From positions 1 through 64,000 of the IMG/VR virus record IMGVR_UViG_3300010334_000030: DNA of 64,000 bases. One strand, 5' to 3'. Positions 4,831 through 55,343 of the stretch are shown in pieces. The DNA is from a virus. Below the pieces are notes generated by a model, which was not told the origin of the DNA, made no database searches, and was given only the letters and a program-made list of their open reading frames with translations. Both the position numbers and the translations under genes were made by a program. Each line of letters starts with the position of its first letter. The first letter of the stretch is position 1.

Positions 4831-6036
4831 CTATTTCTTTTTGATCTTTTTGGTCTTTCTGTTATTCTTAACCTTCTCTTCTTCCGGATCCTTCGCTATA
4901 AATTTAGCAAGCTTCCAGGCTAGTCCAAACCAAAACTTAGCATTTTCGTAAGATCTTTTAATTCCTTTCCATTTCTCCTTTGTCCTTTCTATGATCCCTT
5001 TATCTAATGGTGTTTTTTGTTCCTGAATAGTGGAGAGATAAGAATCTAGGTCTTTTTTAATCTGATCTGCCCTTTTAACGATTTCTTTCTTGCCTATTTC
5101 ATATTTACTTTTGATCTCACTTAATCCTTTAATTCCTATTTTTTCTATTATAGAACTCTTTATTTCTCCAGTGTTTTTAGGGTCTGGTTTTTTTGCCCAT
5201 TTGAATATCCTATAAACACCATATAAAGGGAAAAGTGCAGACACACCGATTAAAAGCTTTAATTCCAATCCAGATTTAAGGTGATTCCAAAAAAGTGATG
5301 TTATGCACTCTTTTTTTAATTTAATAGATCCTGAATCCTTAACTGAGGTGGCAGTTAACTTTACGAAATTTTTAACGACGTCTATATCATTTTTAACCTT
5401 GGGTGTTTTCCATATGCTTATGCCTTTTGTTGTGATCCATTTCCCAATCTGTGCTACCGCATAAATTGTATTAGGCTCTACTGAAATAGTCGAAGAATTA
5501 GAAGACCCCGAGAATCCACTAATAATAGTTGCTGCTTGAAGCATCATTTTCGCTACCTCTTTCTGAACTACCCAAGCTCCGGATAACGTGTAAACCAAAG
5601 CCTTTCCGTCGGCAGCAGCTGCATGCTCTAAAAAGCTAAATCCACCATTAAGAAGTCCTTCTTTTTTTAGTGCTTCTATTTTTGTTTTTACCCCAGCCTT
5701 AGGAATTAGTACAACATATGGAAAATTTGCGCTGCCTTTTGGTTTTAAGGTAATAACCATTCCGGCTTGAAAGAGATCGTAGAAATTTGGGTTCTCGTAT
5801 ATTTTAGGTTTCGGTAAACCCTGTCCCTTTATAACATCCTCTTTTATCTTACCTGCTCCCAATAGATCAAACACATCGAAAACAGATTTTGGCCCTCCTG
5901 GGATTTTATAAGTGTTGGGATCAACTAATAGATCTTTAGGTTTAGCTACAATTGCCATCTTGCTTCCCTCCAATAGGAATTCTTCAGATTCATAAAGGGG
6001 ATCAAACTCAGAAAAGGATAATAGACGCGTTTCCAT
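4831..6036 (-). CDS. hypothetical protein with CTS-like N-terminus, candidate virion internal protein
   Basis: METRLLSFSEFDPLYES; GATATATA about 20 nt upstream; one hydrophobic segment (LLIGVSALFPLYGVYRIF). Confidence 0.7.
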   Translation of the reverse strand: METRLLSFSEFDPLYESEEFLLEGSKMAIVAKPKDLLVDPNTYKIPGGPKSVFDVFDLLGAGKIKEDVIKGQGLPKPKIYENPNFYDLFQAGMVITLKPKGSANFPYVVLIPKAGVKTKIEALKKEGLLNGGFSFLEHAAAADGKALVYTLSGAWVVQKEVAKMMLQAATIISGFSGSSNSSTISVEPNTIYAVAQIGKWITTKGISIWKTPKVKNDIDVVKNFVKLTATSVKDSGSIKLKKECITSLFWNHLKSGLELKLLIGVSALFPLYGVYRIFKWAKKPDPKNTGEIKSSIIEKIGIKGLSEIKSKYEIGKKEIVKRADQIKKDLDSYLSTIQEQKTPLDKGIIERTKEKWKGIKRSYENAKFWFGLAWKLAKFIAKDPEEEKVKNNRKTKKIKKK

Positions 6037-6049
6037 TTAGTTTTTTAAT

Positions 6050-6424
6050 TTATTCTATATATCTTCTCTCCCTATTTGCGGTGTCTATTAGGCGGTTTAA
6101 ACAAGCTATAGTGGCATCATCATAATTCTTGAATGCACCATGGCTAAAATGCTCTATACGAAGGTCTGGGTACCTTATAACGTAGTCGTAAGTGTCACCG
6201 GCATAGAGCTTTACATATGAGATCATACCACAATTCTCTCTAAACCATCTAAAGGCTTGTTGGTAAATCGGTGCATTAATATTCGGAATATCTTTTGAGC
6301 CATAAACAAAATTATCACCTTTAAAGTAAAACTGACCTAGCACATAAGCAGCCATACAAGGTTCATCAAAGCCGAGTTCTTTAAGTTGTAAGGCTTGTTC
6401 GTAAGAAATGAATTCTTTTTCCAT
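6050..6424 (-). CDS. phage hypothetical protein, paralogue of 6424..6840
   Basis: Shares KEFIxYEQALxLKELGF, APxxxQAFRWFRE and ACLxxLI with its neighbour. Confidence 0.8.
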   Translation of the reverse strand: MEKEFISYEQALQLKELGFDEPCMAAYVLGQFYFKGDNFVYGSKDIPNINAPIYQQAFRWFRENCGMISYVKLYAGDTYDYVIRYPDLRIEHFSHGAFKNYDDATIACLNRLIDTANRERRYIE

Positions 6425-6840
6425 TATTGATTTTTTAATATTTCAATAAGTTTCTTTAGACAAGCAAGCTCTGCTTCTTCATAGGTATAGTATAAATCAG
6501 AGTTGTAAACTATATTCTCCCAGCCTTCAAAAAACTGAGTTGACTCATATCTAGATATAGAGTAACAGAACTTTGGCTCCATCGTTTGGTCAGCATTTAT
6601 CGACGAAAATAACAAATAGTGTTCTCTAAACCACCTAAATGCTTGTGAGAATGTTGGTGCAATACATTCTCCTATTTTATCCATGTCTTGTGGGGTATAA
6701 AAAAAATCTTTGTCTTCATAACCAATAATGACATCTGATAACAATTCCACATTTATGTTATACCAGGCAAAACATTGTTCACCAAACCCAAGTTCTTTAA
6801 GAGCTAATGCTTGTTCGTAAGGGATAAATTCTTTTTGCAT
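6424..6840 (-). CDS. phage hypothetical protein, paralogue of 6050..6424
   Basis: Same motifs as 6050..6424; tandem duplicate. Confidence 0.8.
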   Translation of the reverse strand: MQKEFIPYEQALALKELGFGEQCFAWYNINVELLSDVIIGYEDKDFFYTPQDMDKIGECIAPTFSQAFRWFREHYLLFSSINADQTMEPKFCYSISRYESTQFFEGWENIVYNSDLYYTYEEAELACLKKLIEILKNQ

Positions 6841-6845
6841 GCTAA

Positions 6846-7682: not shown

Positions 7683-7684
7683 AG

Positions 7685-7900
7685 TTAATCTTTTTTAAAT
7701 GTTTCTTTATAGAATTGTTCTCCACAATTTTCTTCATCAACCATTGGAGATTGATTGATATATCCATTATACCAAGTATTAATTATCTCTTGCTTGTGCA
7801 TTTCTTTAGCTTGTTCAACTAATTCATCCATTATAAAAACATCCCCTTTAATTTCAAAGTTTTTATAAAGTTGAGTAACAAACCATTGTATTGATGTCAT
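7685..7900 (-). CDS. small cassette protein (MTSIQWF...AKEMHKQEII family)
   Basis: Paralogous to 8515..8814; ends in KKD-stop. Confidence 0.7.
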   Translation of the reverse strand: MTSIQWFVTQLYKNFEIKGDVFIMDELVEQAKEMHKQEIINTWYNGYINQSPMVDEENCGEQFYKETFKKD

Positions 7901-14409: not shown

Positions 14410-14943
14410 CTATTTGGTAGGAACGTAAGTAACCTGTTCTATCTGCTCTGGTAGAATGCAGATAGTGTAATCAGAAGCTAGTTCAGGTTGTCTCTTAGTT
14501 TTAATATAAAATGATCTGGGGATGGCGAAAACGCATTCAGCTCCGTCTTTTTGGCCAACCCCAGTCACTACAAATTCTACGTCGGTGAAAATATTGATAG
14601 CATCCGTATAATCATCTTCTGGTCTGTCGTCTCTTTCTGTTCTGCTTCCATAGATGGCATATTTTCTTTTAGCCATTCTTTCTCTTTCTCTTTCCGCTTC
14701 TCTTTTAATATACTCTGGAGCATTTTTACCTTGACTAGGTAATATAGTCTCAACAACAACCATTTCAATCTCGCCACTAGCCTGAGATCCTAAGAAAATG
14801 TTGATAATTTCGGTTAGATCTTCAGTAGGCACACTCATTTCAGGCTTTGAATCATGGCCTCTGTAATGTGCTTCGTTGTAAACTGGCACTTTGGCTTCGT
14901 TTAAGCTAGATTCATATGATTCAAATTCCAGAAGGTGTTTCAT
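14410..14943 (-). CDS. hypothetical protein with CTS-like N-terminus
   Basis: MKHLLEFESYESSLNEA; GATATATA at 14963..14970. Confidence 0.75.
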   Translation of the reverse strand: MKHLLEFESYESSLNEAKVPVYNEAHYRGHDSKPEMSVPTEDLTEIINIFLGSQASGEIEMVVVETILPSQGKNAPEYIKREAERERERMAKRKYAIYGSRTERDDRPEDDYTDAINIFTDVEFVVTGVGQKDGAECVFAIPRSFYIKTKRQPELASDYTICILPEQIEQVTYVPTK

Positions 14944-14948: not shown

Positions 14949-16208
14949 TTATCTTTTTCCATTATATATCGCTGGATTCTGAGCTTTTTTGGCTTGCTCC
15001 ACTTGTTTAGCTTTCTCTTTAGCTGCAGCTTGATAGAATTCTAGGTTCTTTTTAAGCCTATCCCTTTCAAAATCTGGAATACCGTTGAAAAATTCAGATT
15101 TAACGATGGCAGTAGTTTTTTCTAAAGCAATCTCTGGGTTTCCAATATAATGTGCAGCCAATGAGTACTCATCAAGAAGTCTCCATTGCCAGATCTCAGG
15201 TTCAACGAAAAGAATATCTGATGTTCCTCTAGTTTTAATAGCTACGTCTCCATAGGCAAAAGCGATCAAGAATCTTTTCTGTTCTCTTAACTTTCTCATA
15301 ACGTGGAATGCACACTCCAATCTCGATGGTCTGTATTCCCATGCCTTTGAGTAAAGATTAACAACCTCATCGATTGGATAGTTTAATCTCTCCTTTATTT
15401 TAGCCTCCATGTACATCGAATAGTAGACTTCTTCTTCCCAGCCACCCATCTCAGCTCTTTTAACATAAGCTTCTATCGACTTCTCATATTGCTCAGAATC
15501 TCTATAACTTTGAGCTAGATAGAAAACGTATCTGGCATTATCGGGTTCTTTTTCTAAAGCCTCTTCTAGAATTTTAGCGTCATTAGAGTATTTCTCTTGA
15601 AGACTCGATGCTCTCTTAAGAGGCGAGATGTCCGCAATAACGTGAGAATGCGGAATTGTGCCCTGGATTAGGTTTTGCTTATCTGTATGTAGATATTCAT
15701 GAAGAACCCCTTTATAACACCAATCAACATCAGATCTAACTACCTGAACACGATGGTATTGAAGAGCCCCTAATCTGTACATGATCTGGTAAGCATCTGG
15801 GGTCTTATCCAAACCAGCAAAAGGATTTCTTCCTGGCATTTCTGCAATGAAAGTGTCATCGGCATCTATAATCCATCTGTAATCACATTTACCCTTAGCC
15901 AACTCAAGACTCTCTGTTCTGTTAACTTCGAAATTTACCCATGGACGCTCGTGAAGTTCACCAGGAATTCCAAGTTTTTCCATTGTTGAATTAATAACCT
16001 CTTTGGTCTTATCCTTAGATCCGGTGTCGACAATTACCCAATATGAAATATACGGAGCAACTGCTGAAAGACATTTTTCGATAGTGTCCTCCTCATCCTT
16101 AACTATCATAACCAAGCAAAGCTCAATTGTTTGCTTCAATTCCTGCATCTTTACAATAGGCTTAGGAATACCCATTGGGATAGATTTCTTTTGATTCTTT
16201 TTGCTCAT
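14949..16208 (-). CDS. GT2 glycosyltransferase with C-terminal TPR repeats
   Basis: LVMIVKDEE, VDTGSKD, IDADD (DxD), GVLHEY, then TPRs (ARYVFYLAQSYRD). Confidence 0.92.
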   Translation of the reverse strand: MSKKNQKKSIPMGIPKPIVKMQELKQTIELCLVMIVKDEEDTIEKCLSAVAPYISYWVIVDTGSKDKTKEVINSTMEKLGIPGELHERPWVNFEVNRTESLELAKGKCDYRWIIDADDTFIAEMPGRNPFAGLDKTPDAYQIMYRLGALQYHRVQVVRSDVDWCYKGVLHEYLHTDKQNLIQGTIPHSHVIADISPLKRASSLQEKYSNDAKILEEALEKEPDNARYVFYLAQSYRDSEQYEKSIEAYVKRAEMGGWEEEVYYSMYMEAKIKERLNYPIDEVVNLYSKAWEYRPSRLECAFHVMRKLREQKRFLIAFAYGDVAIKTRGTSDILFVEPEIWQWRLLDEYSLAAHYIGNPEIALEKTTAIVKSEFFNGIPDFERDRLKKNLEFYQAAAKEKAKQVEQAKKAQNPAIYNGKR

Positions 16209-16881: not shown

Positions 16882-17496
16882 TTAAGATTTCTTTAATCCA
16901 AGTTTTTTAACAACAGCAGCTAGAACTTCATCTTTACCGCTCTCTGCCTCTACCTTAACCAACTTTCTGCACTTTTCATAGAAGTCAACTAGAGGTAAAG
17001 TTTTCTCCTCATATTCTTTGAATCTTTGATTTACTATCTCGTCACTAGAATCATCTTTTCTGTTCTCCTCTTTAGCTCTAGCCTTAATTCTATCCTTTGC
17101 TATCTCATTTGGCAGATCCAGATAAAAAGCATGATTCAGACCCAATCCCATTCTGCCTAACATTGTGTCTAATCTTCTAGCTTGTTTAATTGTTCTTGGA
17201 AATCCGTCGAGAATAATTCCTTTAGAAACGTCTAGAGATTTAAGTTCTTTTCTAAGTATTTTAACCATCATATCGTCAGGAATTAAATTCCCACCTTCGA
17301 TAATTTTCTTTAATTCCGGATCGTCGGAGTTTCTGATAATATCACCCGTTGAGATGTGTGAAAATCCGTAGGTCTTTTTTAATTCTTTCGATAAAGTTCC
17401 CTTACCTGAACCAGGAGCTCCAAGGACGATCATTATTTCACCCTGATCCGAAGATTCGTTAATTTCAAATTCTGAAAGCTTTTTAATCTTTGCCAT
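16882..17496 (-). CDS. adk: adenylate kinase with a CTS-like N-terminal extension
   Basis: GAPGSGKGT, HISTGDIIR, LDGFPRT, short LID (RKDD); extra MAKIKKLSEFEINES. Confidence 0.93.
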   Translation of the reverse strand: MAKIKKLSEFEINESSDQGEIMIVLGAPGSGKGTLSKELKKTYGFSHISTGDIIRNSDDPELKKIIEGGNLIPDDMMVKILRKELKSLDVSKGIILDGFPRTIKQARRLDTMLGRMGLGLNHAFYLDLPNEIAKDRIKARAKEENRKDDSSDEIVNQRFKEYEEKTLPLVDFYEKCRKLVKVEAESGKDEVLAAVVKKLGLKKS

Positions 17497-21602: not shown

Positions 21603-23003
21603 TTATTTATTTTCTATACTTCTTTGTAACTGATCTATTTCGATCTGAAGGGCAAGCATTCGATCTTTTGTTTTTCTCCTTTTCGAGTAGAGATCCTTGA
21701 TTATTGTTCTGATAATAGGATTTTCCTCGTCTGATCCAAAATAAGCACCCGAGGCTGTTCGTGTCCATTCCTCTTTAGGGTTAACCGGATCCTTACCTTT
21801 ATATGACTCTGGAGAAATGCCCCATTGAACCATGGTATTGGGATAGAGCGAAGCAAAGTCATAACAAGCAATCCATTCATGAAGTCCGGTTATTGGCTCT
21901 TTTACATATCCACCTGCAAATTTAACATGAACCTCATCCTTTTTTTCTTGAACGAAAATCTGCTTTCGTTCTAAGAATTTTCTCAACATCATGATCTCTG
22001 TTGACCAAACTGGAGAAAGGGATCTATTTATCTCCACACCTGCGATTTGAGCTATCTTGAAGAAGGTCTGCATGGTTTTGAGCTTTTGATCGATATAGTG
22101 AACAAGAGCACAGTCAACTGCGTTATAGTAAATGAAATCTTCAAAATTGGATTGGTAAAGATCTCTAAGTGTTCCGTTGTATTCTATTTTTTTAAGACCT
22201 ATAGCTTTATTTGCAACATAATCTAATCGGTTACTTTCTTTGATTTTAATAACTCTGTCCCATTTTTTATAGATCTCCAGGTAATCGACCATTAGTAGAT
22301 GCGCGGGTAGCTGTTCCTTTCCTAGAAGATATCCTCCGGGTGAAATGATTTTTGGATCTATGCCTAATTTTTTAGCTCTGTTTAGCAAATAAGGCCAGTC
22401 ATATCCTAACCAGTTCCATCCAGTAATTAAAGGCATTTTAGGACCCAGATCTTTAAAAAACGTGTAAACTAGATCATACTCAGTTTCGAATTGTTTATAT
22501 TTAAATGACCACTCATCACCAGTTTTTTCGAAGTATGTGTTGAGCTTCTTGTAGATGCTTGCTTGCTGTTCAGGGGTCAAAGGGTCTAGTCCTAAAAGGA
22601 TAAGCTTGCATTTATCTGTTGCAATACCTATAGATAGGATCCTATTCTTTGCATTAGCAGTATCCAAAGCTGCTGCCATCTCCTCTGTAATCTCAACCTC
22701 AATATCGACAAAATATTTTTTAGGTGTTTGGAATTCCCAAAGTGGAGCGGTTAGTTCTTTTGGGGCTTCCTCTAAAATCTGAGCTATTCTATATTTGTCA
22801 TATCTTTCAGTTTTCACTTTCTTCACAGGTTCACCCGTCCAAGTTTTCCACTCTCTATCTTTAGACGAATTACTGGGGGTGCACTTCTCCCAAACAAATC
22901 TTTCTGATTCTGGGATAGGTACTGTTATGAATGCTAGATCTCCGTCTTTGGTGAAATGTGAAACTTTTAAAGATTTGCCTTGATTCTCTATGTCTACGAT
23001 CAT
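21603..23003 (-). CDS. family B DNA polymerase, N-terminal subunit (exonuclease plus motif A)
   Basis: DIEV, TGWNWLGYDWPYL, YNAVD, GGYVKEP, DFASLYP; ends before motifs B and C (no YG, no DTDS). Confidence 0.92.
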   Translation of the reverse strand: MIVDIENQGKSLKVSHFTKDGDLAFITVPIPESERFVWEKCTPSNSSKDREWKTWTGEPVKKVKTERYDKYRIAQILEEAPKELTAPLWEFQTPKKYFVDIEVEITEEMAAALDTANAKNRILSIGIATDKCKLILLGLDPLTPEQQASIYKKLNTYFEKTGDEWSFKYKQFETEYDLVYTFFKDLGPKMPLITGWNWLGYDWPYLLNRAKKLGIDPKIISPGGYLLGKEQLPAHLLMVDYLEIYKKWDRVIKIKESNRLDYVANKAIGLKKIEYNGTLRDLYQSNFEDFIYYNAVDCALVHYIDQKLKTMQTFFKIAQIAGVEINRSLSPVWSTEIMMLRKFLERKQIFVQEKKDEVHVKFAGGYVKEPITGLHEWIACYDFASLYPNTMVQWGISPESYKGKDPVNPKEEWTRTASGAYFGSDEENPIIRTIIKDLYSKRRKTKDRMLALQIEIDQLQRSIENK

Positions 23004-23056: not shown

Positions 23057-23064
23057 GATATATA
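23057..23064 (+). promoter_or_regulatory. GATATATA putative late promoter (representative copy)
   Basis: 11 copies lie 4-27 nt before starts, always in gene orientation; this copy is flipped for a plus-strand gene. Confidence 0.75.
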
Positions 23065-23087: not shown

Positions 23088-23387
23088 ATGGCAAAAAATT
23101 TCACAGACTTCTTAAATGAATGGTTAGACTCTCCAGGAAGCGTTGATGTTCCGGCACAAAGTACTGAAGTAAGGGTAAATTCTAGGAATTACACCCCAGC
23201 AAACCCAAGTATGCCAGAAATTGTTGATGCAATGTATGAGGCAAATTATTTCCACGATTTTTTGGATAAAGAGGGTAAGTCAGAGGAATTCAATAAATTC
23301 TTAAAAGGCAAAAAAAGATCTGGATCTGATATTACAAGATACCTTAAAGATTCATTCCAAACAAAATCTTCTAAAAAAGAAAAGTAA
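23088..23387 (+). CDS. hypothetical protein with CTS-like N-terminus
   Basis: MAKNFTDFLNEW; preceded by GATATATA. Confidence 0.75.
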   Translation: MAKNFTDFLNEWLDSPGSVDVPAQSTEVRVNSRNYTPANPSMPEIVDAMYEANYFHDFLDKEGKSEEFNKFLKGKKRSGSDITRYLKDSFQTKSSKKEK

Positions 23388-24394
23388 TGTACCATAAAAT
23401 ATACGAATTCTGTAAAGTTAAAAATAAAGGGGTCTGCTACAAAAATGGGGTTGATCCTACCCCCAGAGTTCAATATATTCTTGATTTATGTAAAGAAATG
23501 GGGCTTAGTGCAGAATTGGACATTTGGGGAACTGATGAGGAAGTTTTTGATTATTTAATTATGGACGCACCTGAAATTCTTAGAACAAAAACGGATCTTG
23601 ATCCAGAGAAGGTTAAAGCGGTTAGAAGTCTATATTTTGAATTTAGCAAAGAAGCCGAAGATTTTCTAAGTGACAAGGGGGTAGACGAGGATCCAAAATT
23701 CATAGAGCCTGATATGATGGACATGCTTGGTGATGAGTACGGTGACATTGTTGACAAATATACAGAGGAATTAAAAGATATAGTGGGACAGGTGGTTAAG
23801 GAGAGAAATAATTTCTTTAACATTATGCTTACCGGAAGCTCTGATAAATTTGTGGTTGCTCACCACGATATAGTGAATCCAAACTCTGATAACGCTAACG
23901 ATAATTCTTGCTCAGTTATAAACGCTCTAGCTATTAAGAAAAAAAGACCCAACGTGAATGTGGTTATTTTAGATGGCGAAGAGGTTGGTGGAATAGGTTC
24001 AGATAGATTGTCTCAAAGAATAAAGGGAGGAGAATTCAAATGTAAATGGATTCTAAACCTAGAACTGACAGGCAGAGGAGGTACAAACTTCTTTGTTGGA
24101 GCAATGGGAACTAATCTTACCCAATGGATAGCAAACAGATTTGAATGCCCTATAGTTAAAGTTCCATTCAATGACTCTGTTATCTTTAAAAAGTATGGTA
24201 TAGATTCAACAGTAATAAATCCACTACCAATAACAAATAAAGAAACACCGATAATCAATAAAGACGGGGATTATCTTGACTATAGCATGTTATTTAATTG
24301 TCACAAAATGACAGATTCTGTAGATACGATTGATGTGATAGACATGAAAGAATTTGTTGAGGACGTATGCTTAAAAATAATTGACGAAGCGTGA
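23387..24394 (+). CDS. M28-family Zn peptidase
   Basis: AHHD, ANDN, DGEEVGGIGS, NLELTG and terminal H...D ligands. Confidence 0.8.
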   Translation: MYHKIYEFCKVKNKGVCYKNGVDPTPRVQYILDLCKEMGLSAELDIWGTDEEVFDYLIMDAPEILRTKTDLDPEKVKAVRSLYFEFSKEAEDFLSDKGVDEDPKFIEPDMMDMLGDEYGDIVDKYTEELKDIVGQVVKERNNFFNIMLTGSSDKFVVAHHDIVNPNSDNANDNSCSVINALAIKKKRPNVNVVILDGEEVGGIGSDRLSQRIKGGEFKCKWILNLELTGRGGTNFFVGAMGTNLTQWIANRFECPIVKVPFNDSVIFKKYGIDSTVINPLPITNKETPIINKDGDYLDYSMLFNCHKMTDSVDTIDVIDMKEFVEDVCLKIIDEA

Positions 24395-24501
24395 GAAGAA
24401 TAAAACTATTTGAAGAATTTGTACAGTTAATCGCACCTAAGAAGAAGGTGAAAGATGTTAACAAAAGAGTGGTTGTAATCCCAAGCTGGAATATATACTA
24501 A
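24391..24501 (+). CDS. about 36-aa protein with CTS-like start (not in the ORF track)
   Basis: GTGA overlap with the peptidase stop; MRRIKLFEEFVQLIAPKKK...; 3' end approximate. Confidence 0.5.
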   Translation: MRRIKLFEEFVQLIAPKKKVKDVNKRVVVIPSWNIY

Positions 24502-24517
24502 AATCATAAAAATAGAG

Positions 24518-24592
24518 ATGTATAGCAAATCACAAAATCGAACGCACAAGAAAGCAATAAATAGAACATTTCTATTTCCTATATTATTTTAA
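24518..24592 (+). CDS. putative 24-aa leader peptide
   Basis: MYSKSQNRTHKKAINRTFLFPILF; stop lies 2 nt before the terminator stem. Confidence 0.35.
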   Translation: MYSKSQNRTHKKAINRTFLFPILF

Positions 24593-24594
24593 TT

Positions 24595-24621
24595 TCCCTT
24601 CTTTTAGAAGGGATTTTTTTT
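24595..24621 (+). terminator. intrinsic terminator or attenuator upstream of the aaRS-like gene
   Basis: TCCCTTCT-TTT-AGAAGGGA followed by T8. Confidence 0.8.
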
Positions 24622-24660
24622 GAGGTTTAAATCCAACTTAAAATAAAAAAAAAACAAAAA

Positions 24661-25482
24661 ATGAAAAACACAGAAATCTACAACGAACTAGTGCAGAAAA
24701 TGAGGGAGTTCTTTCTAGCAAAAGGTTACAAAGAAGTACCAACGCAATCACGTTTATCAATCCTGGCGGCATGCGAGAATCCACATTCTATAGCTACCTT
24801 CAACTATCAAGGTGAGGTTTGGCCTTTACCCCAAACTGGACAAATGTGGCTAGAGTATGAGCTTCTAAAGAATCCGGAATGGCCTGGTGTATTTTGTTTA
24901 ACAACTTCATACAGACAGGAAAAAAATCCAATTCAAGGAAGACATGACCTAATCTTTCCTATGTTTGAATTTGAAAGTAAGGGTAATATAATTGATCTGG
25001 ATAACTTAGAGAGGGAGCTATTAGTTCACTTAGGATTTGATAAACCAAATGCTGTTGACTATGAAAGGTTATGCCAGGAGTATGATACGTCTATTCTTGA
25101 GGCTGAGCACGAAACTAAAATGTGGAATGAAATTGGATCTGTTGTATCACTACAGAATTTTCCAATTAGAACAAATCCATTTTGGAATATGAAACACCTA
25201 GCAAATGGGGTATTCAACAAAATAGACGTTATCCTATATGGACAGGAAACCATAGGAAGTGCAGAACGTAGCTGTGACGTTAATAAAATGAGGGAAATGT
25301 TCTACACTATAGAGAATGGAAATTATTGTGCTAAGCTATTCGAATTATTTGGGAAAGAGAGAGTTGAAAAGGAATTAGAGGAATTTTTATCATTTGAATT
25401 CTTCCCTAGATTTGGAGCTGGAATAGGAATGACTAGATTGGAGAGAGCTTATCTACTTAAAAAAGCTGAGGTAAGCAAATAG
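24661..25482 (+). CDS. class IIb aaRS catalytic-domain paralogue (AsnRS/AspRS-like, probably asparagine synthetase A-type)
   Basis: Motif 2 (SYRQE...RH...FPMFEFE), ETIGSAER, motif 3 (PRFGAGIGMTRL); no anticodon OB domain. Confidence 0.85.
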   Translation: MKNTEIYNELVQKMREFFLAKGYKEVPTQSRLSILAACENPHSIATFNYQGEVWPLPQTGQMWLEYELLKNPEWPGVFCLTTSYRQEKNPIQGRHDLIFPMFEFESKGNIIDLDNLERELLVHLGFDKPNAVDYERLCQEYDTSILEAEHETKMWNEIGSVVSLQNFPIRTNPFWNMKHLANGVFNKIDVILYGQETIGSAERSCDVNKMREMFYTIENGNYCAKLFELFGKERVEKELEEFLSFEFFPRFGAGIGMTRLERAYLLKKAEVSK

Positions 25483-25930: not shown

Positions 25931-27805
25931 TTATTTAGACTCAGATTCTTCGAAAACGACATCTTCAACATTAGTATCTGCTGAAGGTTGTTCTGGGGTT
26001 TCCTGAGCTTGGCTGTAAATTCTGCTTGAGATTTCAGAAAGTTTCTGAGCCACTTCATTCATTTTAGCTTCAATGGCTTCTACATCCCCTTCTTCCTTTA
26101 CTTTTTTAAGCTCTTCAATCTGAGTAGAGATTTCTGTCTTCTCCTCATCAGTTAGCTTCTCGTCAAGATCCTTAGCCATTTTCTCTGCCTGGAAGATCAT
26201 AGAATCAGAATCGTTTGTAATTTTAACTTTCTTCAATCTATCCTGATCTGTCTTTTCGTTGTTTTTAGCCTCGTCTTTCATTTTTTGGATTTCATCGTCA
26301 CTAAGTTTAGATCCAGATTCAATTTTGATCTTTTGTTGTTTTCCTGTTCCTTGATCCTTAGCTGACACGTTAATGATACCATTAGCATCAATATCAAAGG
26401 TTACTTCGATTTTAGGAACCCCTCTTGGTGCTGGTGGGATATCAGTAAGCTGGAATTTACCAAGGGTTCTATTATCTGCTGCCATTGGTCTTTCCCCCTG
26501 AAGAACGTGAATGTCTACGGCTGGCTGACCATCTGAAGCTGTGCTAAAAACTTCGCTCTTGGTTAAAGGGATAGTTGAGTTGGATTCGATCAACTTGGTG
26601 AATACCCCACCCATAGTTTCGATACCAAGTGAAAGTGGGGTCACATCTAATAGCAAGACATCTTTAATGTCTCCGGCTAAAACCGCTCCCTGAATAGCAG
26701 CGCCCATTGCCACTACCTCGTCGGGATTAACATTCTTGGATGGCTTTTTGCCAAATAGCTTCTCCACTTCCTCTTGGACTTTGGGGATTCTTGTTGAACC
26801 ACCAACTAGGATAACTTCGTCAATATCAGATGCTTTTAATTTAGCATCAGCTAAAGCTTTAGTACAAGGTTTCAATGTTTTCTGAATTAAATCATCGCAC
26901 ATTGACTCGAACTGAGCTCTGGTAATTTTCTTTACAAAGTGTTTTGGACCTTCTGCACCAGCACTTAAGTATGGAAGGTTTATTTCAGTTTCAGCAGAAG
27001 CTGATAACTCAACTTTAGCTTTCTCTGCAGCTTCTCTGATTCTTTGGTAAGCCATAGAATCTTTAGAGGCATCAATTCCACTTTCCTCTTTGAAAGCTTC
27101 AACTATCCAATCGATAATTTTCTCATCAAAATTATCTCCACCTAAGTGGGTATCACCATTGGTTGAAAGCACTTCAAATACCCCATTACCAATTTCAAGA
27201 ATAGAGATATCAAAAGTACCACCACCTAAATCGTATACAGCCACTTTTAAGTCCTTTTCTCCTTTATCAAGACCATAAGCTAGGGCTGCTGCTGTAGGCT
27301 CGTTAATGATCCTTAAAACCTCCAATCCGGCAATTTCTCCAGCTTCCTTGGTGGCTTGTCTTTGACTGTCATTGAAATAAGCTGGAACGGTGATAACAGC
27401 TTGTTTAACTTCTTCACCTAAATACTCTTCTGCAGTCTTTTTAAGGTTCTGCAAAACCATAGCGGAGATCTCTTGTGGGATATAAGATCTTCCATTGGTG
27501 TCAACCACCACCTTTTCACCATCAGAAGACTTCCTCACTTTGTAAGGCATCTTTTTGGCCTCGTTTTTAACCTCGCTGTACTTAGATCCGATAAATCTCT
27601 TAACAGATGAGATTGTGTTCTCTGGATTGGTTACCGCCTGTCTTTTGGCTGGATCTCCAATTTTAATTTCCCCGTTTTTGAAACTCACAATACTTGGGGT
27701 TGTTCTTTTTCCTTCTTGGTTCACAATAACTACTGGTGCGTTTGCTTCCATTGTGGAAACGCAAGAGTTGGTTGTGCCAAGATCAATTCCGATTACTTTT
27801 GCCAT
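25931..27805 (-). CDS. dnaK: DnaK/Hsp70
   Basis: [42 protein letters not shown]. Confidence 0.99.
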
Positions 27806-28703: not shown

Positions 28704-29114
28704 CTATCTAAAATCTCCTTTTTGTTGTTTTCTAATAAGGTACTCGTAAAGGTATCTAAGACCTTTTCTGTAATCGTTAGCGGTTTTAAAAGGTTTAAAT
28801 TTCTTAATATCATTTCCGTTTCCTTCTGGAGTTTCTTCACTTCTTATAGGATTATATCTCCTAACTGTTCCCGATGGATGAACGGTGTAAAAAACATCAT
28901 CATGTCCTCTCTCCTTTTGCTTCTTTGTTGTTCTTACGAATTTAATGGTATTATTAAGTTCCTGCTGATGTGAAGTGTCATCTTTGAATCCAAGTCTTAT
29001 AATCTTCATGTATTCTGGGGTGTTTCTGATAGCATCAAGATTTAACTCCCTACGGGTCTCGACTTTATATTCACCCTCTGGATTGTAATTTTTAAAGCTT
29101 AAAAGATTCTTCAC
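28704..29114 (-). CDS. hypothetical protein with CTS-like N-terminus
   Basis: GTG start 4 nt after GATATATA gives MKNLLSFKNYNPE. Confidence 0.65.
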   Translation of the reverse strand: MKNLLSFKNYNPEGEYKVETRRELNLDAIRNTPEYMKIIRLGFKDDTSHQQELNNTIKFVRTTKKQKERGHDDVFYTVHPSGTVRRYNPIRSEETPEGNGNDIKKFKPFKTANDYRKGLRYLYEYLIRKQQKGDFR

Positions 29115-29211
29115 AGTGTATATATCTCTGCTCAGATCCGTATGATCCATTAAATTACAAACCCTCATGATTTTCAAGAGCATTAGCTAATTATGGAGAT
29201 CACCTTCGAAA

Positions 29212-33944: not shown

Positions 33945-33961
33945 CGATTTTATATATCGAA

Positions 33962-38465: not shown

Positions 38466-38480
38466 GATTTATATATTTGA

Positions 38481-44637: not shown

Positions 44638-45177
44638 CTATCTGCTAATTAACACCGAATTTTTTGTAGATCCCTCTTGAACTCTCCAATTTTCACCTAG
44701 ATATGAAATAACTATAGATTTCATATATTCAATATAGGTTCCTTTACCTTGGAAAGAAAGATTTTGTTGGATTTCATCGTAGATTCTACTCACCTTTGGA
44801 TTCAATTCCAAATAATTCAAAATACATTTAGAACAAATTTCCATAAGTCTAGAAACTTCACCGCCTGAAGCTTCGAATTTTTCATCATGCTGATCAGGAA
44901 TCTCCTCTTTGTCAATTGCAAGATCCTCTATAATTTCCGGAGAGATTTGATTTAGAGCTAAAACGCAATATGAATTTTTAGCACCTGTGATCATTTCTTT
45001 ATCTGAATATTTTCCTATGGTTAAATGATATCCCATATGGCCTTTCTCATCTTCGCTCTCTATATTAAAGAAGTAGTGGTAAACATCACTAACTTTTTTT
45101 AGTAAAAATGGCGAAGTTCCAAATCCATCAGATTCATAAAGACCTGAATTGAATTCATTAAATCTTAATATTTTCAT
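44638..45177 (-). CDS. hypothetical protein with CTS-like N-terminus
   Basis: MKILRFNEFNSGLYES. Confidence 0.75.
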   Translation of the reverse strand: MKILRFNEFNSGLYESDGFGTSPFLLKKVSDVYHYFFNIESEDEKGHMGYHLTIGKYSDKEMITGAKNSYCVLALNQISPEIIEDLAIDKEEIPDQHDEKFEASGGEVSRLMEICSKCILNYLELNPKVSRIYDEIQQNLSFQGKGTYIEYMKSIVISYLGENWRVQEGSTKNSVLISR

Positions 45178-47242
45178 CCTCTTGTTTATTATTTTTAGAT
45201 TTTTTTAGTGCTCTTCTTTTTGGTTTTTCCCCTTCTGTTAGACTTTCAGCGCTTGGTTTTTTTAATTCATCAGATTCTTTAAGTTCAACATCATTTAATG
45301 CAGTAACGAAAGACTGATAGAAAGATGCAACAGAAGCAGGAACCATTTTTTTAAATCCCAGAAAATCCTCATTTTTCAACTTCTCTCTCACGTCAGTAGA
45401 GGATGCAGATCTTGGAGTTTCTATGATTTTTATTTCTTGTGGGAAATCACTTCCGTGCTTTTTGAGATACTCTTCTTGTTTTTTATAGTCATCAACTCTA
45501 TCATCGCCTGCACCTATAGCTTTTATAATAAATCCATGTTCTTTAGCTGCACCATAAGCAATTCCTAATAATCCTCTGTTTACTATATAAAAACCTTTTA
45601 TTAAACTCTCTTTCTCTCTGACTAAACTCTCCATATATTTTCTAACTAAATCCAAACTAAATGGAGATTTTTTAGACTTACTGTGCCCTGGGTGAACTAC
45701 TGCTATTATACAAGGGAGATTGTTTTTCTCCTTCATAAAGGTAGCCATTTTTAAATGACCATTATGGAAAGGCTGAAATCTTCCAAGAATAACATTTACC
45801 GGTTCAAGCTCTTTCTTTTCCTCTTTATCTTCCTTCTTCTCATCCTTCTTAGAATCTTCAGTGAGTTTAGGTTTTCTTGATGTGTCTATTTTTTCAATAG
45901 CTGAAATAAATTCATTATATGAATAGAATTCTCCATCTTCCTCGTTTTCGACCTCACTAACATCTTCACTCTCGACAGTTAAATAATCTATCTTTCTTCT
46001 TCCCAGACTCTTTTTAAAGTCTAAAAATGAAGGTAAAGAAACAGACTCTGAAACATTCTTCTCTTTCTTTCCTGATATTCTTTTCTCCAACTGAGAAACT
46101 AGAGAATTGAATTGATCCATAATCGATTGTGTGATTATTCCACCTGGTCTCTTTTTTATCTTTCTGAAAGAATTAAGAATCAGCTTAAATAGGGATTCAA
46201 ATGATTCATCAAGATCAACATACTTTAAAACACGTTTGTCTTTGATCATTCCCTTGTTTAACCTAAAGTCATCTCTCTTAAGATACTCCGGTTCTTGGAA
46301 ATCTGCATTTTTATATTTAGAAGAATACTCGTCAAGAAATTTAGAAAAAACATCAGACATAAAAGAAACATATCTTTCGTCTTCAGTTTCACCGTCCATT
46401 GAGAATGAATCTACACCATTCTCTAAGATGAAATTCATAACGTCTAATATAGCTATACCTAAGAAATCACTCGGCTTATCCTCTCTTTTCTTCTTGGCCT
46501 TAGATTTAGCTAGCTCAGTGAAAACCGGATTTACCATCTTAGATAAAACTGGTTCGCCTTCTTCAACATCCTTACCAAATCTAAATACTATACCTTCGAT
46601 AGGTTTTTCTAAATCGTGGTTTAAAGCAGTAGTTTTAAGCTCAGGATTAAGAACCCCAATTATGAATGCAACAAAGCTTCTAGTTTTATATTCATTCACA
46701 AGGTCTTCAAATGGGGTTTGAAGAAAATTCATAATCTGAGATTTTTGATTTTCATCAAGTTCTCCCTGGAAAATTATCGGAGGTCTTTCAACACCAATAA
46801 GATCTGCCCAAGTATCAAGCTTCTCTTTATCTTGTATAGTACCCTGTGCATTTCCACTTAAATCTTTTCTGTGAACATAGGAAAGGATAAGATTGTTTTT
46901 AGGAACCCTATCGTAAACAATTTCAACTGGATTATTACTTGAAAAATACTCTAAGCCAAATCTCCATCCTCTAGGGATCTTTTGAATTACGTGAGGAGGA
47001 AGAGACTCGATATAGTTTATAGGCTTCTCGTAATATTTCATAAGAGTTCTATCAACGAGTGTAATTGGATTTCTTTGATCCCTTTTGTAAAAAAGAAATT
47101 TACCAGTTTCAATATCTCTTTCAAAAATAAATGCAGAACCATCCATCTTCTCATTCACAGTCACGTATGAGTTCAAAAGCTTATCTACGAATTCCTTGCC
47201 CTTCTTGTTATAGAGATCATATAAATGAACGATTCCTGACAT
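45158..47242 (-). CDS. fusion of an RNA-ligase-like nucleotidyltransferase and a HIGH-motif (NMNAT/cytidylyltransferase-like) domain
   Basis: EKMDGS, FGLEYF, EGIVF, KMVNP (ligase motifs I, III, IV, V); GRFQPFHNGH, GDDR, SSTDVRE (HIGH NTase). Confidence 0.8.
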   Translation of the reverse strand: MSGIVHLYDLYNKKGKEFVDKLLNSYVTVNEKMDGSAFIFERDIETGKFLFYKRDQRNPITLVDRTLMKYYEKPINYIESLPPHVIQKIPRGWRFGLEYFSSNNPVEIVYDRVPKNNLILSYVHRKDLSGNAQGTIQDKEKLDTWADLIGVERPPIIFQGELDENQKSQIMNFLQTPFEDLVNEYKTRSFVAFIIGVLNPELKTTALNHDLEKPIEGIVFRFGKDVEEGEPVLSKMVNPVFTELAKSKAKKKREDKPSDFLGIAILDVMNFILENGVDSFSMDGETEDERYVSFMSDVFSKFLDEYSSKYKNADFQEPEYLKRDDFRLNKGMIKDKRVLKYVDLDESFESLFKLILNSFRKIKKRPGGIITQSIMDQFNSLVSQLEKRISGKKEKNVSESVSLPSFLDFKKSLGRRKIDYLTVESEDVSEVENEEDGEFYSYNEFISAIEKIDTSRKPKLTEDSKKDEKKEDKEEKKELEPVNVILGRFQPFHNGHLKMATFMKEKNNLPCIIAVVHPGHSKSKKSPFSLDLVRKYMESLVREKESLIKGFYIVNRGLLGIAYGAAKEHGFIIKAIGAGDDRVDDYKKQEEYLKKHGSDFPQEIKIIETPRSASSTDVREKLKNEDFLGFKKMVPASVASFYQSFVTALNDVELKESDELKKPSAESLTEGEKPKRRALKKSKNNKQEDENIKI

Positions 47243-47267
47243 AATTTTATTTTAAAACTTTATTACT

Positions 47268-48197
47268 TTATATTGTATTTATTTCACTCGGAACTGGTAA
47301 TCCAACTCTAGTTAGATATTCCAAAAATTTAGTTTTGATGTGAGGAAGCTGATCTCTCAATTCAAAATTAGGCGATGTGATAATCTTAAACACATCCTCA
47401 AATGTTTTAACGTCATTCTGAGAGTATCCCTGACCTAATGCGAAATCTATAAACTCCTGGGGATTATTAGTTACGAATCTTTCACTACCCGGAATTTTAG
47501 CTGCATTTTTAAGTCTTGCTTTAATCTTTCCTCTGTATGATTTAGTGTGCCAGAATAGTCCATCACTTAAAATCAGTACTGGTGTTTCGTAATCCATAAC
47601 CTGACCTTCATCATCTGTGTTTATAACTTCGGCTCTAGCTGATAATATAGCTGCTAATAACCAGTTACGGTGAGCAGATTTATATTTGCTTTCACCCTTT
47701 TTGTAATCAGGAGAATAGTAGATAAACTTAGACCATGTCATATCTGATAAAGGAATAAGATCTAACTGAACCTCACCTTTACCTGGATCTCCTTCTATTG
47801 GCCAGCCTAAACTAACTATATTAAGTCCTGACATTAATCTGATCTCCGGTTTAAATCCAAGAGATTCCTCTAGCTCAGCATCGAGTATATCAAAAACTCT
47901 CTTAGCACATTCCTTATATCCAATCCCCTCTTTTTGGGAAAACCAATTTCCATTATACCCAATATCAAGGTCACCAGACGTATCGTCTGGATTTTCTTTC
48001 TTCCCTATACTTCCAATAACAACATAATTGGTTCCTTCTGAATTTGGATCTATCTCTAATAGAGGGAATAATATATTTTTAATGTTTTCCATTGTTAAAG
48101 AAAATTCAGCCTCTCTAATTCTTCTTGAGCTTTTTATAGCAGCACCGCCCTCGAAGATTTTAGAGAATCCAGAAAAATTTAAAATCTTACTTTTCAT
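47268..48197 (-). CDS. pol-beta-superfamily nucleotidyltransferase with CTS-like N-terminus
   Basis: IGSIGKK...SGDLDIG (GS...DxD) and VQLDLI third acidic residue; MKSKILNFSGFSKIFEG. Confidence 0.75.
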   Translation of the reverse strand: MKSKILNFSGFSKIFEGGAAIKSSRRIREAEFSLTMENIKNILFPLLEIDPNSEGTNYVVIGSIGKKENPDDTSGDLDIGYNGNWFSQKEGIGYKECAKRVFDILDAELEESLGFKPEIRLMSGLNIVSLGWPIEGDPGKGEVQLDLIPLSDMTWSKFIYYSPDYKKGESKYKSAHRNWLLAAILSARAEVINTDDEGQVMDYETPVLILSDGLFWHTKSYRGKIKARLKNAAKIPGSERFVTNNPQEFIDFALGQGYSQNDVKTFEDVFKIITSPNFELRDQLPHIKTKFLEYLTRVGLPVPSEINTI

Positions 48198-48756
48198 AGG
48201 GCCTTAATCTGTCATAATATCTTTCCATAGCTCCACTTAAATAGTCGCTGTAAACTCTTTCGTCTCCATTCTTAGGATTTTCCGGGTCGTATCCCTTGCC
48301 AAAATAACCTTTCCCTTTTAAAACACCAGAGGTGTAGAAATCTTGGGCATCCTTTTGGGTTACATTTTTTCCTTTAATGTTTTTAGCTTCCCAGCTATCT
48401 AAAACATCATCTTTCTTCTGCTCCACTCTATCTTTAGACATCTTAGCAAATGTGTCTTTATTATCCCCAGTTGAGAAGAAATCAGCTACGGCAGCACCAG
48501 CACTGAATATCAATCTACCAAATAAAGAAAAAACATTTTTTGCTATGTTAACAGGATCTTCCCCACTATTTTGATAAGAATCTCCCTTTCTATATTCAAT
48601 GTCACTTCTAAGACCAGATGACATTCCCCTCATCCATCTGCTAAATTTGGTTTTTCCTTTATCAGATGGTGCATATTCTGAAGATCTCCCTCTTGAATAA
48701 TACCTGCTAGATTCACTAATGGATTCAGAAAAAGCCTCGAATTTTTTAATTCTCAT
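48187..48756 (-). CDS. hypothetical protein with CTS-like N-terminus
   Basis: MRIKKFEAFSESISES; GATATATA at 48777..48784. Confidence 0.75.
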   Translation of the reverse strand: MRIKKFEAFSESISESSRYYSRGRSSEYAPSDKGKTKFSRWMRGMSSGLRSDIEYRKGDSYQNSGEDPVNIAKNVFSLFGRLIFSAGAAVADFFSTGDNKDTFAKMSKDRVEQKKDDVLDSWEAKNIKGKNVTQKDAQDFYTSGVLKGKGYFGKGYDPENPKNGDERVYSDYLSGAMERYYDRLRPYEK

Positions 48757-48790
48757 TGGGAACTTCTATTTTTCTATATATATCCCCTGG

Positions 48791-50317: not shown

Positions 50318-51007
50318 TTATTCTTTATTTTTATAAGACCATAAAAATCCACCTGCACTTTTACCCCTTCCGTTTAAAATTTTAGAAATAGAGCAAACCC
50401 CAGTTTTTTCTTGTGCCTCTTTAATTGATTCAAACTCATTAATAAAAGCTCCGGACATATCCATTTGAATAACAGGCTTACTTCTAGATTTTATCATTTT
50501 ATTTATACTATCTTGAGAAAATTTGAATCCAAGGGTTCTTTTGTTACCCTTCATTGATTCATGAATTTTTTTTAAATGTTTTGATTGGTTTTCAGTAAGA
50601 ATACCTTTTTTGGAAAGCCCCAGATTTTTTCTATGCTCCTCCGTAAAGAATCTATTTCCATTTCCCTCCCCACCATTACTAAGATTTCTTAAAGGTCCAT
50701 TTTTTAAATCAAATCTACCTATTGTCACTATCATTTCATTCTCTATGGAAAATGAATCTTTCTCATTAAGATTCTCACTATATTTAATTATTACCGGCTC
50801 CAATCCGCAATCCAGTATTTTTTTAATTATATGATACTTAGGAAGATTCGAATATTTCCCGCGTTTAACTTTCTGTAAATGTATTCTGCTTCTAAAATTC
50901 CTACCCTTCCCTACATAAAAAGGCTCATATTCAAAGATATACTTCCCGTAAGCCCAATTTCCAGGTTTTCTTGGATCTAAATAAACATAAACATAATAAT
51001 TATCCAC
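50318..51007 (-). mobile_element. free-standing GIY-YIG homing endonuclease with NUMOD repeats
   Basis: YYVYVY...FYVGKG...R, NLSNGGEG, FTEEHRKNL (NUMOD3), EFESIKEA...SAGGFLW (NUMOD1). Confidence 0.85.
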
Positions 51008-52802: not shown

Positions 52803-52810
52803 AAAAAATT

Positions 52811-52839
52811 AAAAAAGGGACAGTCCTTGGAACTGTCCC
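52811..52839 (-). terminator. intrinsic terminator after gp32
   Basis: GGGACAGT-N7-ACTGTCCC followed by T6 on the minus strand. Confidence 0.8.
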
Positions 52840-52855
52840 ATTAGGTGTTTGTTTA

Positions 52856-53809: not shown

Positions 53810-54045
53810 AAAATTTACTTTTGTTTTTTTACTTTTTGTTTTACTTTTGTTTCCTTTATTATTTACTAAGTTATATTTTTGTTCAATCAATGTGTTCTAA
53901 ACTCTTGGACATAGCACAGGAATTGCAACTTACCCTTTTGGATATTTCTTTTTTGCAAAAAGACGTTGAGAATACTGATGATTCGATTTCCTCCGTAGAT
54001 CTGGGATGATCTTGATTGTTAGTGCGGGATTGGGTAGAGGAGGTG

Positions 54046-54762
54046 TTAGTTGAGAATTGGTTCAAGTTTTGCTTCAAGTTTTCCATTAATTTCTTTTAAT
54101 TGATTTTTTAAATACAAGTTTATCCAGGTTGCGTCCACAATGTCGTCAATAGGTTTATTTATAGCCTTAGCTGGTGTTATCCACTCAGATTTATTGACTT
54201 CTAATATACTAGTAAATTTCTCTAAATTTGTTTCAGTGTCTTTTAAATTGCAAAGAGTCTCATAAAGTTCATCTTTCTTTGCATTCCCCTTAAGGGCATA
54301 TTTTTTAATAGCGGTGGGAGAAAAAACATAAAAATTTTCAACGCCTACCCTATTAATTATCTTTTCTCTTAGAAGAGCAGTAGCCATCGAAATGTCGATT
54401 AAAGAATTTCCGTTTGATGAAAAGCTAAGTCCTTCCATTGCCACTGAAAATTCACAGTCTCCCATAACTTCTAATATGCTGCTCCAGAAGGATTCTACTA
54501 TATCTAAGAAATAAACTATCTTAATTCTTTCCCTTCCTGTGTAGTCTTCAGGAAGTTCTTTTTTATCAAGAAAATAAATATTAAAATCATCTTCAGAATC
54601 AAGAACAGAAAAAGGCTTCTTTGAATTTTTTAAATGTGACTCTGCAGATCTATCAGATCTTGTTAAAGATCCCCAAATGTATTTTCCATCCTTAAAACAG
54701 CAAAAAGCCGGAGAATTTATGGAGAAATCTATGCCTACTGTATTTTGATAAGTGCTTAACAT
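54046..54762 (-). CDS. RuvC-like (RNase H fold) nuclease
   Basis: GIDFSINSP, MEGLSF, PTAIKKYA-GNAKK, DDIVDA. Confidence 0.8.
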   Translation of the reverse strand: MLSTYQNTVGIDFSINSPAFCCFKDGKYIWGSLTRSDRSAESHLKNSKKPFSVLDSEDDFNIYFLDKKELPEDYTGRERIKIVYFLDIVESFWSSILEVMGDCEFSVAMEGLSFSSNGNSLIDISMATALLREKIINRVGVENFYVFSPTAIKKYALKGNAKKDELYETLCNLKDTETNLEKFTSILEVNKSEWITPAKAINKPIDDIVDATWINLYLKNQLKEINGKLEAKLEPILN

Positions 54763-55113
54763 TTAAAGGGGTTTACTCAGTATAAATCTGATTGTAAAAG
54801 GATCGTCATGGCCAAATCTCCAAGATAACATTGGGTCACCTATAAGAGATTTCATTCTTTCTGTTATGGCATCTACAAGATAAGAAATTCTGGATGGCAT
54901 CTCCTCATGGGGTGGGCTATAGCTAACAATAAACATGAGATCAGTCTGAGCCTCAATATCATCTATATTAAGACCTTCCCCTATATGACTAAATGTCGAA
55001 GCTATTCTACTATAATTATTTCTTATAAAAAGCCCGAGCTTATTTTCGTCAGGTGATTGCTGTTTACCCATAGAAAAAAAATCAAATTCCCTGAGATGTT
55101 CCATTTTATTCAT
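54763..55113 (-). CDS. hypothetical protein
   Basis: Coupled ORF; MEHLREFDFF resembles the CTS-like motif. Confidence 0.65.
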   Translation of the reverse strand: MNKMEHLREFDFFSMGKQQSPDENKLGLFIRNNYSRIASTFSHIGEGLNIDDIEAQTDLMFIVSYSPPHEEMPSRISYLVDAITERMKSLIGDPMLSWRFGHDDPFTIRFILSKPL

Positions 55114-55343
55114 TACATTGAGGGATTTACTATTTGGCCATATTCGCCAACGTATCCGTAAGTTTTAGAAAGTTTTTCGAAACACTTTTTCATTTGCTCT
55201 TCCGTCATGCACTCCACTATATCATTCAAAACTCTTTGGTCATTACCTGCTGCAGCAACCAAAAGATTTTTCATCTGTACTTTTTGATCCCCAAAAGGCT
55301 GGGAGTACTTCATTTCGTTTATTTTTTCGCTAAAAGTTCTCAT
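55113..55343 (-). CDS. hypothetical protein with CTS-like N-terminus
   Basis: MRTFSEKINEM; GATATATA at 55365..55372. Confidence 0.7.
   Translation of the reverse strand: MRTFSEKINEMKYSQPFGDQKVQMKNLLVAAAGNDQRVLNDIVECMTEEQMKKCFEKLSKTYGYVGEYGQIVNPSM

Follow-up and report, generated by a model that had tools for sequence, protein, structure and literature searches.

The capsid-targeting sequence (CTS) of bacteriophage T4 is the textbook portable signal for loading proteins into a phage head and also serves as an engineering tool, and the T4 prohead protease gp21 cuts after [L/I]-x-E. As found in the T4 internal proteins, the CTS reads MKTYQEFIAE; it undergoes a single cut, and attaching it to foreign proteins suffices to get them packaged (PMC8442874; PMC3012670). 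Here we describe a short N-terminal leader, or tag, on about 21 of the 130 genes of one viral contig, the IMG/VR record IMGVR_UViG_3300010334_000030, which to judge by its sequence is probably a propeptide of the T4 capsid-targeting type, removed by a prohead protease and placed on many different proteins. The window analysed is the first 64 kb of this linear, 141,054-bp contig, whose completeness is estimated at 51%. Literature searches found no description of such a leader system.

In the phiKZ-like giant phages (phiKZ, 201phi2-1 and SPN3US), a gp21-related protease cuts after Glu, and the head packages many internal proteins, including a virion RNA polymerase, which N-terminal propeptides are thought to target there (PMC5694885). 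Their sites, however, read [S/A/G]-x-E or A-x-E, and their propeptides are mostly longer than 100 amino acids (aa) and have no leader in common, whereas here the leader is short and shared and the third position before the predicted cut (P3) is L, I or V, as it is in T4. An L, I or V at P3, together with propeptides of 10-20 aa, excludes processing of the phiKZ type. The Dar anti-restriction proteins of phage P1 and the ejection proteins of P22 travel inside the head and reach the host along with the DNA, as is predicted for the tagged proteins here, but they are incorporated through ordered protein-protein dependencies, without a common cleavable N-terminal tag.

The contig has a G+C content of 36%, and its minus strand carries 124 of the 130 called genes. 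Its major capsid protein (contig 120421-122199) matches the T4 gp23 family PF07068 (E=1.6e-38), and the closest database relatives of this protein, at 31-49% identity, belong to huge uncultured phages, the Prevotella Lak phages, the Tenacibaculum phages PTm1 and PTm5 and the Sphingomonas phage PAU. On the basis of the gp23-type match and of these nearest relatives, we assign the contig to a jumbo T4-like phage, of which it is a fragment; the host group is probably Bacteroidota. A 119-aa protein matching sigma-70 region 2, which we liken to T4 gp55, is also encoded.

Nine tagged genes lie in the window and twelve more at contig 107-130 kb, most of these twelve beside the capsid gene. Apart from a single paralogous pair, located outside the window, the bodies of the tagged proteins are unrelated. 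Among 79 distinct tags from this phage and its relatives, whose sequences were fetched from IMG/VR, the consensus is M-K-N-[IL]-[LK]-x-F-x-x-[FYW]-x(0-3)-[LIV]-N-E followed by S, G or A. Around the predicted cut (marked ↓ below), P3 is L, I or V in 73 tags, P2 is N in 52, P1 is E, and the first residue after it (P1') is S, G or A in 52. The propeptide sits at the extreme N-terminus and is mostly 13-16 aa long, and the mature proteins behind it span 7-44 kDa. As the first-pass annotation of this sequence had said, replication enzymes and fibre genes are untagged, judging by gene-by-gene inspection of N-termini and by an anchored regular expression; tail and baseplate genes likewise have no leader.

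We measured the similarity of N-termini without reference to any motif, by ungapped BLOSUM62 scoring of residues 2-17 between all pairs of 126 proteins, with 14 paralogue pairs excluded. Real N-termini yielded 163, 87, 44 and 20 pairs at scores of at least 18, 20, 22 and 24, compared with 94, 44, 20 and 8.6 for random internal segments and 117, 54, 24 and 10 for shuffled N-termini. In 300 control sets of each kind, the shuffles preserving composition, the real counts were never reached; the best-connected proteins were the candidates already named in the first-pass annotation. Consistent with this, an aromatic-x-x-aromatic core followed by [ILVFM]xE[SAGD], starting within the first 15 residues, was observed 13 times against 1.75 expected, and the anchored expression fitted 16 of 130 N-termini versus 2.2-2.8% of internal positions (P = 4e-8 to 4e-5). 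When the N-termini of the window were scored against head-module tags from outside it, 9 of 70 reached at least 20 (3.4 expected); the adenylate kinase Adk (37), the 136-aa protein (35) and the 177-aa protein (27) scored highest, and the 179-aa, 99-aa, 401-aa and 189-aa proteins also ranked at the top. A home-made expectation-maximisation motif finder of the zero-or-one-occurrence-per-sequence (ZOOPS) type was dropped, as it overfitted and put 96 of about 130 N-termini in a diffuse motif.

The twelve N-termini originally listed are all present where they had been placed, and the listed starts are the first start of their open reading frame (ORF) except for 29114, an internal GTG of a longer ORF, and 55104. 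Nine of these examples hold; the candidates at 2008 and 55104 are weak, and 24391..24501 (+ strand), despite its tag-like start, was rejected as a gene, being an unsupported 36-codon GTG ORF that overlaps the stop of the preceding gene and is possibly a remnant. The (L/I)-x-E proposed to follow the aromatic core is found in most tags but not in the 136-aa protein and its orthologues, where [LIV]xE is missing.

The clearest case of portability is Adk, whose identity as an adenylate kinase is certain from its matches to PF00406 (E=1.3e-38, whole domain with P-loop, residues 24-175) and to 93 solved Adk/UMPK sequences at E<=1e-10. Solved cellular Adks align from phage residue 21-22 to their own residue 2-3, residue 3 of E. 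coli Adk corresponding to phage residue 22, and other phage Adks align only from residue 22. This alignment argues that the extension is an addition absent from cellular adenylate kinases, in agreement with the original proposal. All Adk orthologues, at 62-68% identity, carry KxFxxFLNE. Leaders in the 179-aa and 309-aa families vary in sequence and even in length around an invariant first aromatic, Glu and adjoining small residue, and the Glu is followed immediately by conserved mature sequence; in the former F6 and E15 never change and indels fall within the tag, and in the latter (11 sequences) E16-G17-G18 is invariant, as is IGSIGKK..SGDLDLG (G-S ... D-x-D). AlphaFold models place both leaders outside the fold, with a predicted local distance difference test score (pLDDT) below 50 for residues 1-18 of the 309-aa putative nucleotidyltransferase (model pLDDT 82.5) and for residues 1-21 of the 179-aa protein (model pLDDT 76.6). 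The tag is therefore portable, as had been claimed, being carried by unrelated proteins, lying outside AlphaFold-confident folds and lacking from cellular Adks. Moreover, each tagged enzyme has just one site, where the tag ends, and behind it the conserved domain is intact, as in the T4 internal proteins.

The leader is similarly kept in other families. The 7 orthologues of the 177-aa protein share just 38-50% identity overall but hardly vary in residues 1-10; 9 distinct orthologues of the 99-aa protein retain FxxF[ILV]NE↓W or FxxFL[LN]E↓Y, those of the 189-aa protein FxxF..[LI]NE, and 12 of the 76-aa protein Fxx(x)..[ILV]NE↓[MA]KYGQP behind GATATATA, the promoter-like motif described below. 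Such leaders persist in clade members with just 37-46% identity in the protease; distant members have cores nearly identical to that of the T4 CTS, as in L075, where the leader reads ..Y-F-E-F-I-A-E↓K. In some relatives (L025:12785-15636, L026:12932-15777, L028:12956-15443), three extra, different tagged genes stand between the ligase-like and 179-aa genes, and in others single tagged genes are inserted elsewhere (L022:14310-15104, L024:14285-14563). These extra genes differ in length and sequence, and this phage has none at those loci, which indicates that tagged accessory genes turn over. Such variable loci recall the hypervariable internal-protein loci of T-even phages.

Tagged genes are also linked to GATATATA. 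The window contains 12 copies of it against 4.3 expected (0 of 100 shuffles reach 12), its distribution over the contig is 25 versus 1 by strand, and every copy is on the same strand as the downstream gene. It precedes 6 of the 9 tagged versus 5 of the 63 untagged genes of the window (P=2e-4), the six being those that the first-pass annotation had counted directly behind it, and two more tagged genes lie within the GATATATA-headed operon of 48756. The ATATATA core precedes the 9 orthologues of the 99-aa gene, and the full GATATATA most of them. The protease, scaffold-like, fibre and tail genes also have GATATATA upstream. The motif resembles a late promoter. As a separate observation, in one class of late genes (G/A)ATATATA ends 4-7 nucleotides (nt) before the start codon versus 16-29 nt in the others (window 29119-29126, 33951-33958 and 38470-38477; contig 82243-82250 and 130563-130570), which suggests leaderless or nearly leaderless late mRNAs.

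The machinery that such a leader would call for is encoded on the same contig. A 664-aa ORF upstream of the capsid gene (contig 122224-124218) has a Peptidase_S77 domain (PF03420, 30-32 bits against a cut-off of 27), and a profile of eight diverse orthologues matches the T4 gp21 structure 5JBL (E=6.5e-6). In these 8 sequences H80 and S135 are invariant and align with H85 and S140 of T4 gp21, identifying by homology a prohead protease of the gp21 family (S77) with its catalytic His and Ser in place. The tail of this ORF (about residues 290-420) consists of tandem 16-residue repeats; with Y-[LV]-[AS]-E in each of them, it resembles a scaffold domain that offers one protease site per repeat. A similar protease-scaffold fusion is seen in the annotation of PTm1. 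The N-terminus of the capsid protein, W-A-P-L-I-E↓S ... S-L-N-E↓S, parallels W-K-P-L-L-E↓G ... L-T-E↓A of T4 gp23, and in the T4 record gp23, gp24, Alt, gp67, gp68 and gp22 all show [L/I]-x-E sites at their N-termini. Three proteins near the protease have acidic N-regions rich in [LIV]-x-E sites. Coiled-coil scaffold-like genes that immediately follow the capsid gene, in this phage and in relatives, begin with the leader, as do small core-like genes beside the capsid gene; a scaffold role for the tagged coiled-coil genes is putative and rests on their position and composition. A second tagged nucleotidyltransferase, matching PF01909, is encoded at contig 126980-127804.

One further gene touches on the capsid. 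A 156-aa protein (28002-28472, - strand) is conserved in relatives and looks late, with GATATATA 90 nt upstream; over its residues 89-126 it shares 51% identity (E=2e-10) with capsid residues 50-98, copying the first part of the mature protein, and the L033 copy likewise has a hit to the capsid protein. A possible role is mimicry of the capsid N-arm.

Compared with the T4 system, the leader has the same place at the extreme N-terminus, the same length of 10-20 aa and the same order of aromatic-x-[DE]-F-[IL]-x-E and a small residue, although the resemblance to MKTYQEFIAE is at the level of pattern, the tag being too short for a homology statistic. It is likewise common to otherwise unrelated, fast-evolving accessory proteins, is accompanied by homologous gp21 (S77) and gp23 proteins, and goes with late expression, for which the evidence here is a promoter-like motif. 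In contrast to T4, the consensus here is longer (M-K-N-[IL]-K-x-F-x-x-F-[IL]-N-E) with a strong Asn at P2, and about 21 of 130 genes are tagged, compared with three T4 proteins sharing one CTS. Unlike in T4, the leader also heads scaffold-like genes, and the tagged proteins include an adenylate kinase and two putative Pol-beta nucleotidyltransferases and are not uniformly basic. Further differences are that the tagged genes are scattered among replication genes and spread over a large uncultured clade, and that the system is known from sequence alone.

We thus favour a T4-like route into the head. Late in infection, with transcription of the genes behind GATATATA, the amphipathic N-terminal leader of 10-20 residues, with hydrophobic or aromatic residues at i, i+3 and i+6, would bind the scaffolding core of the assembling prohead, and the proteins bound through it would be enclosed on closure of the gp23-type shell. 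The gp21-type serine protease, fused to its repeat-rich scaffold-like tail, would cut after the leader-ending [LIV]-x-E (mostly [LIV]-N-E), and the same protease would cut the N-terminus of the capsid protein and chop the scaffold. The mature proteins would remain in the head, and some would pass into the host together with the DNA. What we infer for the tagged proteins in general is packaging, cleavage and injection; some of them may be parts of the scaffold or core that are degraded and not delivered.

Every computationally testable prediction of the first-pass annotation held. Its proposal of capsid loading is partly supported by the portability of the tag, by the encoded S77 protease and gp23-type capsid protein and by the link to GATATATA, but loses three of the twelve examples. 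Several observations weigh against this proposal. Adenylate kinase is an odd cargo, without an obvious early role; P1' in its orthologues is R, and its upstream region has no ATATATA, though two relatives have the promoter motif there. The family of the 136-aa protein is tagged but has no cutting site. The pI (isoelectric point) of the mature proteins is mixed (4.8-9.7), whereas the T4 internal proteins are uniformly basic. No gp22 homologue was recognised, and the tagged coiled-coil proteins beside the capsid gene have no match in Pfam or PHROGs. Finally, the cultured relative PTm1 (Tenacibaculum), the nearest by capsid protein, shows no such tag in the 67 kb examined, and LR756500 has at most one candidate tag in 42 kb around its capsid gene; these two results indicate that the tag is confined to a subclade, or else that in PTm1 and LR756500 it is too diverged to be recognised.

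The main rival, which we consider unlikely, is that the leader serves as a handle for assembly or for chaperones, taking proteins to the prohead core or to the phage DnaK/DnaJ during morphogenesis, and that the proteins bearing it are degraded or released with no delivery. Enzymes such as Adk would then work where the head is assembled, for instance by regenerating ATP close to the packaging motor; on entry, Adk has no obvious role. The phage does encode its own chaperones, a DnaJ-like (379-1398, - strand) and a DnaK-like (Hsp70) protein (25931-27805, - strand). Motifs of Hsp70 clients are basic and then hydrophobic, and so is the tag; in addition, several tagged head-module proteins have many internal [LIV]xE sites, resembling chopped-up scaffold. 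The enzymes argue otherwise, since their only site ends the tag and leaves the conserved domain whole, as do the variable tagged loci of the relatives, which resemble fast-evolving host-directed cargo. Recognition by DnaK also leaves the invariant E and the P1' preference unexplained.

It is less likely still that the leader directs proteins to places other than the capsid interior, such as an assembly site at the membrane, the tail or baseplate, or a phage compartment within the cell, the E motif being coincidental or cut by another protease. The 136-aa family, lacking a cutting site, would fit such a destination, but tail, fibre and baseplate genes are untagged, the tag clusters on genes beside the capsid and protease genes, and its end matches the site pattern of the capsid N-terminus and of the protease tail. 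A secretion signal was rejected, as by inspection the leader has neither a hydrophobic core nor the hydrophobic stretch typical of such signals.

That AT-rich codon usage yields the motif as a side effect, or that it is a nucleotide element at late-gene starts (for translation initiation or at a recombination junction), with no role in the protein, is very improbable and already largely refuted: a G+C content of 36% does make K, N, I, F and L common, and N-terminal composition alone lifts similarity (shuffled N-termini exceed internal segments), but none of the 300 shuffles that preserve composition matches the real N-termini, the tag varies in sequence and length among orthologues that keep its aromatic spacing, P3, E and small P1', a constancy of pattern on which a nucleotide-level element was rejected, the tag boundary is the start of the conserved folded domain, and most promoter-bearing late genes (fibres, tail) are untagged.

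We next turn to the individual tagged genes of the window and their neighbours (Table 1). Pfam and PHROGs gave nothing for 8 of 10 tagged window proteins, nor for the tagged head-module proteins, and sequence and profile searches of the PDB gave nothing for the 401-aa, 177-aa, 179-aa and 309-aa proteins. The 401-aa protein has no family or relative in Pfam, PHROGs, the PDB, a search of 5.8 billion proteins or the ESM Atlas, and Foldseek found no fold match for the 179-aa family. For the 309-aa protein, which has no Pfam match, Foldseek matches to Pol lambda and terminal uridylyltransferases are weak (E ~6e-3, template-modelling score 0.34-0.44); together with its invariant motif, they make it a putative Pol-beta-type nucleotidyltransferase. 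Beyond Adk and the two nucleotidyltransferases, the tagged proteins belong to no recognisable family or fold. The start of the 136-aa protein is supported by orthologues that begin at the equivalent residue.

Table 1 Tagged genes, neighbouring or weak candidates and GATATATA copies in the 64-kb window (↓, predicted cut)
Feature	Position	Strand	Remarks
Weak candidate	1772..2008	-	Probably untagged; orthologues without conserved cutting site or promoter motif
401-aa protein	4831..6036	-	Tag residues 1-17; core LxFxxF, then LYE↓S
GATATATA	6056..6063	-	19 nt before start 6036
177-aa protein	14410..14943	-	Tag residues 1-16; end LNE↓A
GATATATA	14963..14970	-	19 nt before start 14943; orthologues have one too
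Adenylate kinase (Adk)	16882..17496	-	N-terminal extension of ~19-21 aa with tag; core LSEF, then INE↓S
GATATATA	23057..23064	+	Only + strand copy in the window; 23 nt before + strand tagged gene 23088
99-aa protein	23088..23387	+	Tag residues 1-11; FxxFLNE↓W
136-aa protein	28704..29114	-	Probable start GTG 29114; aromatic core LLSFKNY, without [LIV]xE
GATATATA	29119..29126	-	Merely 4 nt before GTG 29114
179-aa protein	44638..45177	-	Tag residues 1-15; end LYE↓S
694-aa enzyme	45158..47242	-	Untagged, same operon; RNA-ligase-like N-terminal part and cytidylyltransferase-like (HIGH) domain
309-aa putative Pol-beta-type nucleotidyltransferase	47268..48197	-	Tag residues 1-16; end IFE↓GG
189-aa protein	48187..48756	-	First gene of operon; tag residues 1-15; FEAF, then ISE↓S
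GATATATA	48777..48784	-	Heads operon 48756 to 44638
Weak candidate	54763..55104	-	LREFDFF; without cutting site or promoter motif; no orthologue found
76-aa protein	55113..55343	-	Short tag; end INE↓M
GATATATA	55365..55372	-	21 nt before start 55343

The operon 44638-48756 (- strand) has one promoter motif and four tightly packed genes, three tagged and one untagged. The untagged gene encodes the 694-aa enzyme, which matches PF01467 (E=1.2e-7) and, weakly, PF09414 and PDB 2qjt, and the operon may serve to modify RNA ends. Some relatives have an untagged thioredoxin-like gene in place of its first gene.

Two other loci of the window deserve mention. The family B DNA polymerase ORF (21603-23003, - strand) is just 466 aa long, comprising the exonuclease domain and the start of the polymerase domain, and abuts the only + strand block of the window (23088-25482), which holds the tagged 99-aa gene, an M28 peptidase and a class II aminoacyl-tRNA-synthetase-like gene; a split or interrupted polymerase is possible. 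Behind another GATATATA, a GIY-YIG-like gene (50318-51007, - strand) has the N-terminus Y-V-Y-V-Y-L-D ... G-K-G. Among the fetched relatives it is found only in L030, and it is therefore probably a mobile homing endonuclease.

Taken by its logic, the system appears to be that of the T4 CTS and gp21, and what sets it apart is the longer consensus with Asn at P2, the many genes, the enzymes and the wide clade. These data suggest that the same logic is at work far more extensively, throughout a broad clade of giant uncultured phages, where it can be recognised from sequence alone. A stronger version, which we advance tentatively and regard as rather doubtful, is that the whole uncultured giant T4-like clade loads at least 20 proteins by one sequence-readable code, and that active nucleotide-handling enzymes (adenylate kinase, Pol-beta nucleotidyltransferases) are injected and act before phage expression; they might, for example, counter defences by which the host depletes or modifies nucleotides or RNA. 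On that version, the packaged proteome could be read off metagenomic sequence directly. If the head-loading interpretation is true, the injected proteome of unculturable phages would become predictable, and the predicted cargo would include many relative-less proteins, likely anti-defence candidates. Metabolic enzymes would then count as virion cargo, and a second, divergent pair of tag and protease would be available for packaging foreign proteins.

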